This document shows, piece after piece, positions 12,464 to 60,692 of a DNA stretch of 64,000 nucleotides (its first letter is position 1; the number at the start of each line of letters is the position of its first letter). Both the position numbers and the translations under genes were made by a program. The notes below the pieces were generated by a model. The model searched no databases and was not told the DNA's origin. It saw only the letters and a list, made by a program, of their open reading frames with translations. Source of the DNA: Candidatus Multivoradales bacterium. GTDB lineage: Bacteria > Acidobacteriota > Thermoanaerobaculia > Multivoradales > Multivoraceae. Location: assembly GCA_965223325.1 (NCBI GenBank), contig CBDCWI010000002.1, positions 2,464,001 to 2,528,000 of the forward strand. Reading direction: 5' to 3'.

Positions 12464-12651
12464 CCAGCAAGCGCCAAAGGCGCGAGCAAGACCATCAGCC
12501 ATCCCAGCAAGCGCCAAAGGCGCGAGCAGAACCATCAGCCATCCGGGCAAGCGCCGAAGGCGCAAGCAAAACCAACCCATCCGGGCAAGCGCCGAAAGGC
12601 GCGAGCAAAACCATCAACCATCCGGGCAAGCGCCGAAGGCGCAAGCAAAAA
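12464..12651. repeat. Five tandem ~40-bp units, each with a GCGCC-loop-GGCGC hairpin
   Basis: Hairpins start at 12471, 12511, 12551, 12589 and 12630; loops AAA, AAA, GAA, GAAA, GAA. Confidence 0.95.
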
Positions 12652-55591: not shown

Positions 55592-56899
<1,308 letters not shown>

Positions 56900-57482
56900 T
56901 GCGGCTCCTACGGGGGGTGGGGGGCGCTTCGCCGATTTCACGGTCGAGCCATCGCCAGAGCTCTGGCAGCCCTTCGCCGGTCTTCGATGAAACGGGAATG
57001 AGAGGAGTGTCGGAAGGGAGTTGGAGGAACTCCCTGAAGGATCGGAGTTTGCGGGACCGCTTGCTCCGTGGGACGCGATCGATCTTGGTTGGGGTGACGC
57101 AGAGGCGCGCCCCAAGATCAAGGAAGTACTCGACAGCCTGCACGTCGAGAGGAGACCCGTCGATCTTAGCATCGATCAGCAGGATCGTCGGCATTCCCGG
57201 CCCGTAGCGCTCAAAGAAGGCTCCGATCACCCGGTCCCACTTCTCGCGCTCGGCATGACTCACCCGGGCATAGCCATAACCCGGCAGGTCGACCACCCAC
57301 ACCTTCTCGTCGATCAGAAAGTAGTTCACCGCCCGCGTCCGGCCCGGAGTCCCGCTCGTGCGAGCCAGCCCCTTCTTCTTCAGCATCTTGTTGATAAGAC
57401 TCGACTTACCAACATTCGATCGGCCCGCAAACGCGACCTTGGGCCGATCATCCCGCACCAGGTCCCCCGGCATGACGGCACT

Positions 57483-58251
57483 GCGCACGAACTCGACATG
57501 CTTGAACCTCATGGAACCCGCCCCACCCGTCGAGTTCGTGCTGCGAGCCCCGAAGGGGCGGGAAAAACAGCGCCCGGGAGCATCCGAAACAATCGCCCAG
57601 CGATCGGATGCGGAGGGCGCACGAACTCGACATGCTTGAACCTCATAGAACCCGCCCCACCCGTCGAGTTCGTGCTGCGAGCCCCGAAGGGGCGGGAAAA
57701 ACAGCGCCCGGGAGCATCCGAAACAATCGCCCAGCGATCGGATGCGGAGGGCGCACGAACTCGACATGCTTGAACCTCATAGAACCCGCCCCACCCGTCG
57801 AGTTCGTGCTGCGAGCCCCGAAGGGGCGGGAAAAACAGCGCCCGGGAGCATCCGAAACAATCGCCCAGCGATCGGATGCGGAGGGCGCACGAACTCGACG
57901 TTCTTGAACTTCATGGCCTTAGCCCACCGATTCCCGTCGAGTTCGTGCTGCGAGCCCCGAAGGGGCGGGAAAAACGGCGCCCGGGAACATCAAAAAAAAA
58001 TCGCCCCGCGATTGGATGTGGAGGGCGCACGAACTCGACGTTCTTGAACTTCATGGCCTTAGCCCACCGATTCCCGTCGAGTTCGTGCTGCGAGCCCCGA
58101 AGGGGCGGGAAAAACGGCGCCCGGGAACATCAAAAAAAAATCGCCCCGCGATTGGATGTGGAGGGCGCACGAACTCGACGTTCTTGAACTTCATGGCCTT
58201 AGCCCACCGATTCCCGTCGAGTTCGTGCTGCGAGCCCCGAAGGGGCGGGAA
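57483..58251. repeat. Tandem array of 134-bp (x3) and 140-bp (x2 plus partial) units, each containing the first 10 codons of yihA and a 13-bp inverted repeat
   Basis: Units start at 57483, 57617, 57751, 57885, 58025 and 58165; GCACGAACTCGAC / GTCGAGTTCGTGC; GCCCC-GAA-GGGGC hairpin in every unit. Confidence 0.97.
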
Positions 58252-58286
58252 GGTACTGCACTGCCGGCTGACGGGCAGGGCCCCGA

Positions 58287-60692
<2,406 letters not shown>

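Follow-up and report, generated by a model that had tools for sequence, protein, structure and literature searches.

A tandem array of the lon-yihA junction in an acidobacterial genome, probably a locus-specific minisatellite

Introduction

In the genome of a Candidatus Multivoradales bacterium (Acidobacteriota), the gene for the essential GTPase YihA (EngB) is preceded by a series of copies of its own start, which raises the question of how such an array arose and how it can stand in front of an essential gene. The locus lies in a 64-kb stretch of the chromosome that was analyzed as a whole (the window). A sequence-only reading of this DNA had proposed that the copies belong to an element carrying the reverse complement of its own chromosomal target, pointing to insertion or amplification guided by base pairing, as carried out by HUH enzymes. 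From the comparisons described here, the array is a real minisatellite confined to one locus and not a guided mobile element. It probably originated as a tandem duplication of the junction between the lon terminator and the yihA start, which was expanded later.

Results

The lon-yihA junction, the first ten codons of yihA, and a hairpin around the start codon are present in six head-to-tail copies (Table 1). Read 5' to 3' on the minus strand, the array opens with a partial type-B unit, followed by two type-B units of 140 bp and three type-A units of 134 bp, the last of which continues into yihA. TRF reported an array at 57526-58251 with a period of 134, 5.3 copies, and 96% matches, and a repeat search identified three copies spaced by 134 and three spaced by 140. 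The whole amounts to five full periods and a distal sixth piece of 85 to 87 nt that lacks the long linker hairpin (H), or approximately 5.6 units. The type-B copies are identical to one another, and the type-A copies differ by a single base at position -2 of the real yihA start. The array begins 36 nt past the lon stop, and the last seven coding bases of lon (GCCCTCC) also open every linker. Counting from this 7-mer would make six whole units; the remainder aligns no better than shuffled sequences. When the end of lon and the 35-nt spacer were compared with H as a diverged first copy of it, 1436 and 762 of 2000 shuffles scored at least as high, and only the shared 7-mer favors that relationship.

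Table 1. Coordinates of features at the lon-yihA locus, numbered along the window
Feature	Coordinates	Strand	Details
yihA/engB coding sequence	56850-57512	-	220 aa plus stop; ORF list, Pfam MMR_HSR1
Tandem array	57483-58251	-	Between lon and yihA
Coding arm a, real start	57485-57497	-	Codons 6-10; repeat and 13-mer search
Identical copies of arm a	57619-57631, 57753-57765, 57887-57899, 58027-58039, 58167-58179	-
Upstream arm a'	57529-57541	-	Reverse complement of a; with a encloses leader and ATG
Identical copies of arm a'	57663-57675, 57797-57809, 57936-57948, 58076-58088, 58216-58228	-
Small hairpin T1	57547-57559	-	GCCCC-UUC-GGGGC on mRNA; 35-47 nt before ATG
Copies of T1	57681-57693, 57815-57827, 57954-57966, 58094-58106, 58234-58246	-
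Long imperfect linker hairpin H, type A	57568-57620	-	Fold, -29.2 kcal/mol
Other type-A copies of H	57702-57754, 57836-57888	-	Fold
Type-B copies of H	57975-58028, 58115-58168	-	-19.8 kcal/mol; inner stem, then nine U
Terminator-like sites	57588-57573, 57722-57707, 57856-57841, 58013-57999, 58153-58139	-	Hairpin and U-run
Pseudo-start ORF next to yihA	57509-57646	-	45 aa; TGA overlaps real yihA ATG (ATGA)
Chained pseudo-start ORFs	57643-57780, 57777-57914, 57911-58054, 58051-58194	-	45, 45, 47, and 47 aa
Unique spacer	58252-58286	-	35 nt; lon stop to first repeated base
lon protease gene	58287-60692	-	801 aa; ORF list

The genome assembly comprises 2 contigs with 98.2% completeness. Short-read unitigs from four runs (one study, three samples) matched both flanks of the array with 0 differences. 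A 93-nt unitig covering 57870-57962 (0 differences, two runs) runs from a type-A linker into a type-B cassette, a 157-nt piece at 58086-58242 is longer than one 140-nt unit, and array unitigs had approximately 1.3 to 3.7 times the depth of the flanks in all four runs. No single read-derived record spans the array, and the count of six copies is that of the assembly alone.

The real yihA ATG is at 57512, and the YihA N terminus aligns with those of relatives at M1; homologs at 54% identity or less carry the source names YihA/YsxC. Five extra ATGs lie at 57646, 57780, 57914, 58054, and 58194. The six cassettes and two alleles described in the sequence-only reading were found as reported: the three distal cassettes read MKFKNVEFVR, whereas the three proximal ones share another 10-residue start. 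Judged by alignment, both are plausible EngB N termini. Of 95 aligned N termini, the query among them, 78 have K and 14 have R at position 2, and MKFKN is the more consensus-like of the two alleles, whereas the functional proximal start is the less so. The suggestion that the distal cassettes represent an earlier functional start is partly supported, as they look like an older or alternative one, but the evidence for it is thin because the residue at position 5, N or H, is rare in either case. The coding arm encodes VEFVR, corresponding to the (A/V)-E-F-V motif conserved in the N termini of relatives, and from this match it is native EngB sequence.

The 13-mer GTCGAGTTCGTGC has 12 exact occurrences in the window, six per strand and all inside the array, where an inverted copy precedes every start as had been claimed; shuffled sequences gave 0.24 matches at up to 1 mismatch. 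The hairpin closed by these arms had been described as a 13-bp stem with a loop of 31 or 36 nt. The loops between the 13-mer arms are indeed 31 nt in type A and 36 nt in type B, with the small correction that in the distal units the stem extends to 14 bp around a loop of 34 nt. Folded alone, the start hairpin has a predicted energy of -28.1 kcal/mol in type A and -30.2 kcal/mol in type B. The loops of the two types have the same orientation when compared, and an inversion of the spacer between them was discarded. Start-enclosing perfect hairpins are also not a habit of this genome: a census of perfect inverted repeats (stem of at least 13, loop of 20 to 60) returned only 29, six of which belong to this array, against a rough chance expectation of approximately 11 by our own arithmetic. 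The heat-shock operators CIRCE and HAIR differ from the hairpin in spacing and sequence and were rejected as its identity, and no covariance model of Rfam 15 matched at an E value of 1 or less over 56800-58800 on both strands.

Both linker hairpins that had been noted were recovered in sequence and in predicted folds. The small hairpin T1 is identical across all six units, and the type-A copy of H is followed on the mRNA strand by UGUUUUU. Five terminator-like sites were predicted on the minus strand, compared with 1.7 +/- 1.4 in shuffles. The differences between unit types are distributed very unevenly. Across the two arms, GCCCTCC, and T1 together with its flanks, none of 59 positions differ, whereas the leader, codons 1 to 5, and the remainder of H differ at 23 of 82 positions (28%; Fisher P = 1e-6). 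Two of the differences within H are compensatory, replacing A-U with G-C.

All five pseudo-start ORFs (45 to 47 codons) end in a TGA that overlaps the next ATG. Both periods, 134 and 140, leave a remainder of 2 when divided by 3, although the 5-nt and 1-nt indels that separate the types sit at different places. The peptides of the two types diverge after residue 18, with the phase alone being kept. ORFs overlap the following start between units and at yihA, while the first pseudo-start lies 92 nt past the lon stop. Of shuffled linkers, 57% stay open, and each unit type has a one-in-three chance of falling in the required phase; by our estimate, the whole ATGA chain would arise without selection with a probability of roughly 5% and could be due to chance. 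A scan for sigma-70 promoters at 57200-58500 identified 0 sites, and the organism may use other promoter types.

Distribution of the unit and its genomic setting

A blastn-short search of the whole 6.69-Mb genome with both unit types recovered the array only, the best other match being 16 nt. Among 40 relatives, the array was present in none, and the sole match was a 65-nt stretch of yihA coding sequence in a single genome. Searches of plasmids and phages with the array returned 0 matches, as did searches of viral contigs with a 23-nt linker motif and scans of genome_contigs and metagenome_contigs for the hairpin pattern; the latter scans required exact arms and would miss diverged relatives. 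The closest non-self YihA among 5.8 billion proteins is 59 to 65% identical. Close YihA relatives were absent from metagenome_contigs, and genome_contigs held three matches at the paralog level (29 to 30%).

The gene lon is directly upstream of yihA in 27 of the 29 relatives' loci, with gaps of 27 to 382 nt, in comparison with 774 nt here; the first unit by itself would leave a gap of approximately 92 nt. The start-enclosing hairpin is not conserved in these 29 loci, where the best stems are 5 to 9 nt and mostly at chance level, so that the term native regulatory hairpin would apply to this lineage only. Two of these stems, one of 9 nt at locus L008 and one of 8 nt at locus L006, also involve the F-V codons, and they were reached by 7 and 35 of 200 shuffles, approximately chance for 29 loci. 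A sister species of the same genus carries TGTTTTTCCCC and a GCCC-TTC-GGGC hairpin that ends 33 nt before the start; T1 ends 34 nt ahead of its ATG, and the U-run and the UUC hairpin thus match the sister species in position. The best local alignment between the unit and the sister species' gap is 14 nt, matched by 2 of 200 shuffles, and two further alignments were matched by 26 and 81 of 200. Homology of the unit to this gap accordingly appears weak.

The array lies among genes for DUF362, menaquinone biosynthesis, rho, lon, and clpX in a genome that is rich in repeats. There are 63 intergenic arrays with a period of at least 80 bp, i.e., 62 besides this one, and of the 126 flanks of these arrays, 86 are the 3' ends of genes, 42 of which lie within 30 nt of the stop codon. 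The lon-yihA unit is a singleton among the 63 and does not form part of a dispersed family, and it shares sequence neither with the large array family nor with palindromes that have a CGTGGT core. These palindromes form 40 related arrays. In 37 of 45 elements, the outer arms contain the local stop codon and 2 to 5 coding bases, which are mirrored in the far arm; the element at the gyrB stop is one of them. The palindrome pattern occurs 29 times in this genome and 0 times in 40 relatives, and the family is lineage specific. The genome also encodes 28 matches to PF01797 (Y1), 25 of them above the cutoff, including one RAYT-like protein of 272 aa. The other arrays, the stop-codon palindromes, and the Y1 set are more unusual than the lon-yihA array itself, and this array-rich acidobacterial genome makes the organism a good one in which to study the origin and amplification of hairpin repeats.

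Origin of the array

The unit is absent elsewhere and its coding arm is native, as would be the case for contiguous native sequence duplicated in tandem, and we consider a locus-specific minisatellite of this origin likely. The terminator-like hairpin in each linker, the lon-yihA adjacency in relatives, the stems conserved between types, and the many other arrays near gene 3' ends in this genome also fit such an origin. A native chromosomal block of approximately 134 bp would have been duplicated head to tail. This block would have spanned the lon terminator region, the yihA leader, and yihA as far as codon 10, possibly beginning within the last codons of lon. In that case, the three hairpins of each unit would belong to the native junction and would have been duplicated with it, rather than marking the termini of a mobile element. 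The long hairpin H with its U-run is predicted to be the lon terminator, T1 is the small hairpin with the UUC loop, and the 13-bp stem would pair the leader with codons 6 to 10, enclosing the start codon. An old split would have separated the gene-proximal type A from the distal type B, and each type would later have expanded to three near-identical copies, probably through unequal recombination or replication slippage. We judge these expansions to be recent because the B copies are identical and the A copies differ by 1 nt. Such an array may be tolerated before an essential gene because each unit supplies a full start region. As the pseudo-start frames stop on the next start, ribosomes could pass along the array to yihA.

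The locus is a clean example of a gene junction that has been multiplied before an essential gene and is yet tolerated, and its two old unit types provide a natural experiment in which three stems have stayed perfect while the loops have changed by 28%. This contrast points to structural selection or to correction of the arms by template switching, even in copies that do not serve as the start, and these two are our candidates for what keeps the stems perfect. Template switching has been proposed to correct the arms of inverted repeats (PMC5941160, PMC8604942).

Several observations speak against a tandem duplication. Simple duplication of one block should give whole units, whereas the array has approximately 5.6. 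The start in use, the proximal one, carries the allele further from the consensus, contrary to what plain drift of dead copies would lead one to expect. With five such terminators in a row ahead of it, yihA should be starved if H is an efficient one, and no sigma-70-like promoter was identified in the unit. The shuffle-level alignment of H with the end of lon, the weak homology to the sister species' gap, the start hairpin that relatives lack, and an ATGA chain that could be due to chance weigh on the same side.

Alternative explanations

The sequence would also fit an adaptive expression device, in which six hairpin-gated starts relay ribosomes through the ATGA overlaps to yihA. Such a relay would keep the 774-nt spacer translated and shield it from Rho, and the copy number would set the amount of EngB relative to Lon. 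This reading concerns function and is compatible with an origin by duplication. In its favor are the five open pseudo-ORFs that end in ATGA, the two unit lengths that keep the same phase (2 mod 3) although their indels are independent, and the arms and T1 that stay perfect in nonfunctional copies while the loops have diverged. The gaps of 27 to 30 nt in relatives suggest that lon and yihA normally form one operon, and the ends of MIRU ORFs overlap the flanking genes of a polycistronic mRNA (PMC3184786). Nevertheless, the estimated chance of the chain is not compelling, the peptides are not maintained between types, and the first pseudo-start, which is far from the lon stop and itself locked in a hairpin, offers no obvious entry to the relay. 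An expression device is therefore rather unlikely on present evidence.

A broader proposal would be that this lineage actively builds inverted copies of gene termini and amplifies hairpin units, possibly with Y1/HUH enzymes, and that the yihA array acts as an ATGA relay. We regard this as a long shot. If it were true, the start-mirroring lon-yihA array and the stop-mirroring CGTGGT palindromes would be two products of one process, and the former would in addition control how much of an essential GTPase is made, as a hairpin-gated relay coupled through ATGA.

A variant of the tandem duplication concerns the origin of type B only. A diverged lon-yihA junction, incoming from another strain, would have recombined unequally with the resident one to give a tandem pair that was later expanded. 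The very uneven divergence between types, with a switch placed within a conserved 20-nt island (arm a and GCCCTCC), and the more consensus-like distal allele would agree with this. However, donor-like sequence was absent from all collections searched, the pattern is equally explained if an array of two units is old and its stems were under selection, and local expansion yields runs of identical units whichever account is right. Two strains are thus an improbable source of the two types.

For the guided element of the sequence-only reading, an HUH/Y1 enzyme (IS200/IS605 or RAYT type) or a similar one would locate the yihA start by means of the inverted 13-mer and add cassettes on the gene-proximal side. 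The Y1 complement of the genome, with its RAYT-like member, and the stop-codon-mirroring palindromes would be in keeping with such a process, but nothing ties the Y1 proteins to this locus. As that reading had stated, no HUH enzyme is encoded in the window; the nearest PF01797 match is approximately 109 kb before its start, and no Y1 gene or recombinase is found among the immediate neighbors. A 10-mer that flanks the RAYT-like gene also occurs in the type-B linker; with 77 occurrences genome-wide and approximately 48 expected, it is at chance frequency and uninformative as a link. The unit, linker included, is confined to a single locus, an outcome that the reading itself had set against insertion, and it shares no sequence with the dispersed families. 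The supposed target is the native coding sequence of the (A/V)EFV motif, the linker resembles a native terminator region, and there is no target-site duplication. An ordinary MITE, for which the 13-nt arms could pass as the ends of a 103-bp block, likewise finds neither a flanking direct repeat nor a second locus. Guided insertion is very improbable as the source of the array.

An assembly artefact, or two strains collapsed into one chimeric array, is scarcely credible: no single record crosses the array and one run has low-depth variants with three other letters each at 58072-58139 and 58160-58240, but the 93-nt unitig links type-A-specific linker bases to a type-B loop in two runs, the 157-nt piece exceeds one type-B unit, and the exactly matched flanks, the raised array depth, and the near-complete two-contig assembly all argue for a genuine array.

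Comparison with known systems

IS200/IS605 elements have guides of 4 to 5 nt, occur dispersed, and either encode TnpA or depend on it. What connects the lon-yihA array with them is the idea of an element that pairs with its target through a short complement at the foot of a hairpin; in contrast, the mirror here is a perfect 13 nt of coding sequence, at one locus and with no associated enzyme. REPs, too, are scattered over the genome, with tens to hundreds of copies, and are not known to be derived from the start of a gene. REP/BIME and REPIN-RAYT systems share with this genome intergenic hairpin units near gene 3' ends and a RAYT-like Y1 protein, but the lon-yihA unit is restricted to a single locus and is not similar to the genome's own dispersed repeat family. 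CRISPR repeats of approximately 23 to 55 nt are separated by unique spacers, whereas the "repeat" in this array would be 103 nt and its six "spacers" are two sequences, both of them copies of the yihA start, which bears out the earlier exclusion of a CRISPR array. An integron cassette array, which has an adjacent integrase and ORF-carrying cassettes with attC sites, is not matched by units without an independent gene in the neighborhood described above.

Hairpins that sequester a start codon and are opened by upstream translation are known from translational coupling, e.g., in the RNA phage MS2. Similarly, a stable stem covers the ribosome-binding region and AUG of each lon-yihA unit, and an upstream ORF ends on the start (ATGA). 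The present hairpin differs in being unconserved in relatives and known from sequence, and the coupled ORFs would be by-products of duplication.

Tandem segmental amplification in Salmonella and Escherichia coli proceeds by an illegitimate join followed by unequal homologous recombination. The array likewise consists of head-to-tail native sequence unique to its locus, its identical blocks point to recent expansion, and a microhomology of 2 to 7 nt (GC or GCCCTCC) may have existed at the join. It differs in its tiny scale (134 bp), its two anciently diverged unit types, its perfect stems, and a copy number that is not whole. The persistence of perfect arms while the spacer diverges is reminiscent of template-switch correction (PMC5941160, PMC8604942).

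The MIRU-VNTR loci of Mycobacterium, as PMC3184786 relates after Supply et al. 1997, consist of intergenic head-to-tail units inside an operon, and the 134- and 140-bp units here are similarly located between the co-directional genes lon and yihA. MIRUs constitute a dispersed family with approximately 40 to 50 loci and units of 40 to 100 bp, according to the same account (PMC3184786). MIRU units are GC-rich, contain internal inverted repeats, carry small ORFs whose ends overlap the neighboring gene, and are transcribed within a polycistronic mRNA (PMC3184786). The lon-yihA units are likewise GC-rich with internal inverted repeats, and their ORFs overlap the next start on the downstream side, whereas on the lon side the first pseudo-start lies 92 nt away. 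The lon-yihA unit stands apart from the MIRUs described there in its length of 134 to 140 bp, in its single locus, and in its composition from a local junction that includes ten codons of the downstream gene.

Structure of the lon-yihA array and its support in the reads

On the minus strand of the window, the genes run clpX, lon, yihA (engB), and rho, and the 774-nt gap between lon and yihA is a tandem array over nearly its full length. A repeat search resolved it into three copies at 134-bp spacing (type A, gene proximal) and three at 140-bp spacing (type B, distal). In the gene direction, a unique 35-nt spacer follows the lon stop, with the array beginning 36 nt past that stop; then come a partial type-B unit (the small UUC-loop hairpin T1, the upstream arm, a 36-nt loop, and the coding arm), two complete type-B units of 140 bp, and three type-A units of 134 bp, the third of which runs into yihA. 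Each cassette carries an ATG and nine more codons, reading MKFKNVEFVR in type B and a different decapeptide in type A, and the exact reverse complement of the 13-mer of codons 6 to 10 lies upstream by 31 nt (type A) or 36 nt (type B); the type-B start stem is 14 bp. This 13-mer has 12 exact occurrences in the window, all within the array, against 0.24 expected at no more than one mismatch. Both T1 and a long imperfect hairpin, H, are present in every linker. The sequence-only reading had described these cassettes, alleles, inverted 13-mers, and hairpins correctly.

The 7-mer GCAGTGC occurs just beyond both ends of the repeat region; the odds of coincidence are roughly 10% by a rough estimate, and the pair does not agree with the observed unit join. 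The yihA frame stays open for 85 codons further upstream into the array, from which gene callers could annotate a 305-aa YihA; the start that aligns with relatives gives 220 aa.

Read evidence consisted of short unitigs from four runs of one study, covering three samples. The unitigs showed 0 differences from both array flanks, and their depth within the array was about 1.3 to 3.7 times that of the flanks. A 93-nt unitig found in two runs joins type-A-specific linker bases to a type-B loop, and a 157-nt unitig piece exceeds one type-B unit in length. No record among the unitigs of the four runs spans the whole array; thus, the unit order and the multicopy state are supported by the unitigs, and the count of six comes from the assembly. 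Low- and medium-depth unitigs of run X1 inside the type-B units carry three other letters each, including one difference pair, and could reflect either a third subtype of the unit or the presence of a second strain in the sample.

Coordinates of the features discussed (bare numbers are window positions; C1 and C2 are the two contigs of the host genome)
Feature	Position	Strand	Details
lon-yihA array (TRF)	57526-58251		period 134, 5.3 copies, 96% matches
yihA start aligning with relatives	57512	-	ATG
Extended yihA frame	56850-57767	-	in-frame ATG at 57767
GCAGTGC, post-lon spacer	58263-58269	-
GCAGTGC, yihA codons 10-13	57476-57482	-
Unitig joining types A and B	57870-57962		93 nt
Run X1 variant unitigs	58072-58139; 58160-58240		difference pair at 58106 and 58109
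Second tandem repeat	12467-12650 (C2:2476467-2476650)		period 79, 2.3 copies, 89% matches
Large-unit arrays (examples)	C1:774474-775750; C1:1806696-1807982; C2:2720440-2722172; C2:4069494-4070713; C2:2101804-2103178
CGTGGT-core palindromes (examples)	C1:1559009-1559047; C1:1610908-1610947; C2:130565-130605; C2:3512400-3512438; C1:1806685-1806800; C2:2722071-2722182		C2:3512400-3512438 at gyrB stop
PF01797 loci	C1:1305966-1306784		about 25 more
PF01797 clusters	C2:4.455-4.487 Mb; C1:2.126-2.144 Mb

Origin of the unit

The unit was confined to this locus. In a blastn-short search of the complete 6.69-Mb genome, both unit types matched only here, the best other match being 16 nt; of 40 relatives, one genome alone matched the array, over 65 nt of the coding sequence of yihA. 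Exact matches to the hairpin pattern numbered 0 in both genome_contigs and metagenome_contigs, and there was no match of the array to plasmids, phages, or Rfam, or of a 23-nt linker motif to viral contigs. Base-pairing-guided insertion or amplification had been suggested from the sequence alone, with absence of the unit from any other place taken as the mark of simple duplication; that absence is what was found, which argues against a guided element.

The N-termini in 29 relatives' loci and in the best 120 database homologues follow M/V/L-K-(I/V)-x-x-A-E-F-V, and on this sequence comparison the coding arm is native. In 27 of the 29 loci lon lies directly upstream of yihA, with gaps of 27 to 382 nt; with the first unit alone, the gap here would be about 92 nt. 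A genome of the same genus, whose YihA is only about 60% identical, has in this gap TGTTTTTCCCC and a GCCC-TTC-GGGC hairpin ending 33 nt before the start, and the array unit has TGTTTTTCCC and T1 ending 34 nt before the ATG. Taken as a whole the two gaps align weakly, so the likeness of U-run and hairpin is counted only as positional support for a native origin. In the direction of lon, H with the U-run after it resembles a terminator (5 sites versus 1.7 ± 1.4 in shuffles), making H a putative lon terminator. The heptamer GCCCTCC opens every linker and also forms the final seven coding bases of lon; a duplicated block starting there would make the array six whole units. The remainder of that first "unit" aligned with H no better than shuffles did.

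Tandem arrays and palindromes across the genome

TRF on the whole genome returned 183 rows, of which 120 had periods of 40 or more. Arrays were classed as intergenic when less than half covered by an open reading frame from a crude GC3-based caller, and merging left 63 with periods of at least 80 bp, 2 to 7 copies, and mostly 93 to 99% identity. The genome, acidobacterial to judge by what its closest protein homologues are called, is unusually rich in such large-unit arrays. Forty of them belong to one sequence family with 96- to 386-bp units; the lon-yihA array is a singleton. Gaps between convergent genes are filled by 29 of the 63, and gene 3' ends make up 86 of the 126 flanks, 42 of these lying within 30 nt of the stop. 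Given that gene 3' ends are where most arrays lie and that the lon-yihA array begins 36 nt from the lon stop, it fits the picture of a terminator-region array which, the gap being short, also took in the start of the next gene. A second small tandem repeat in the window begins 6 nt beyond the stop of a plus-strand open reading frame.

The genome also carries a palindromic family of 45 sites, with 18-nt arms composed of a locus-specific 12-mer and then a conserved CGTGGT core, around loops of 60 to 82 nt (long forms) or 3 to 4 nt (short forms). The 12-mers vary among copies, and the two arms of each copy covary. In 37 of the 45, the stop codon of a called open reading frame, mostly TAG, lies within the outer arm, so that the far arm mirrors the stop codon and 2 to 5 coding bases. 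A search for the long-form pattern gave 29 matches in this genome, against 0 in 40 relatives and 0 for a reversed control. It is in these palindromes that the genome shows true target mirroring, and they merit separate study. The Y1 transposase family PF01797 has 28 matches in the genome, 25 above the cutoff. A RAYT-like 272-aa Y1 protein has the same 11-bp tandem-repeat block on both sides, and other matches include multicopy open frames of 316 to 412 aa clustered near contig ends.

Divergence of the two unit types

The type-B copies are identical to each other, and the type-A copies differ by one base. Divergence between the types is uneven: both arms, T1 with its flanks, and GCCCTCC differ at 0 of 59 positions, versus 23 of 82 elsewhere (rest of H, 9/45; leader, 11/22; codons 1 to 5, 3/15; Fisher P = 1e-6). 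Within H, two of the differences are compensatory, and the three stems have survived unbroken in copies that have ceased to serve as gene starts. This conservation is compatible with structural selection, acting on RNA or on single-stranded DNA, and also with template-switch correction of inverted-repeat arms of the kind proposed in PMC5941160 and PMC8604942. The suggestion that the distal cassettes are older starts displaced by newer ones is weakly favored at position 2, where K (78) outnumbers R (14) among 95 aligned N-termini, query included, and the distal allele is closer to the consensus, but N and H are both rare at position 5.

Possible role of the start hairpins and reading frames

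Folded alone, the start hairpin is predicted at -28.1 kcal/mol (type A) or -30.2 kcal/mol (type B), enclosing the leader and AUG; this hairpin is not conserved among the relatives. A scan of the unit gave no promoter-like site. Each of the five ATGs upstream of the real yihA start opens a frame of 45 to 47 codons whose TGA overlaps the next ATG, that of yihA included. Both periods, 134 and 140, leave a remainder of 2 on division by 3, even though the 5-nt and 1-nt indels fall at separate places within the unit. The encoded peptides diverge between types beyond residue 18, so it is the phase alone, not the peptide, that is conserved. Through such an ATGA chain, ribosomes would be passed on to yihA and translation of the spacer would be maintained. 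We estimate that the chain would arise without selection about 5% of the time (57% of shuffled linkers are open, multiplied by the phase odds), and we therefore regard a ribosome relay as a plausible reason for the array's tolerance.

Comparison with known systems

Among described structures, MIRU-type minisatellites and small tandem segmental duplications come closest. MIRU units are described in PMC3184786 as containing open reading frames that overlap, at their ends, the genes on either side in a polycistronic mRNA. The array frames resemble them in overlapping the next start, including the real one; the first of the frames opens 92 nt past the lon stop. Unlike MIRU, REP/REPIN, and MITEs, the lon-yihA unit is not a dispersed family, and the defining features of CRISPR arrays, and likewise those of integron arrays, are absent. 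Two traits of the array are unusual: a perfect start-enclosing hairpin in six copies and two ancient unit types with their stems conserved.
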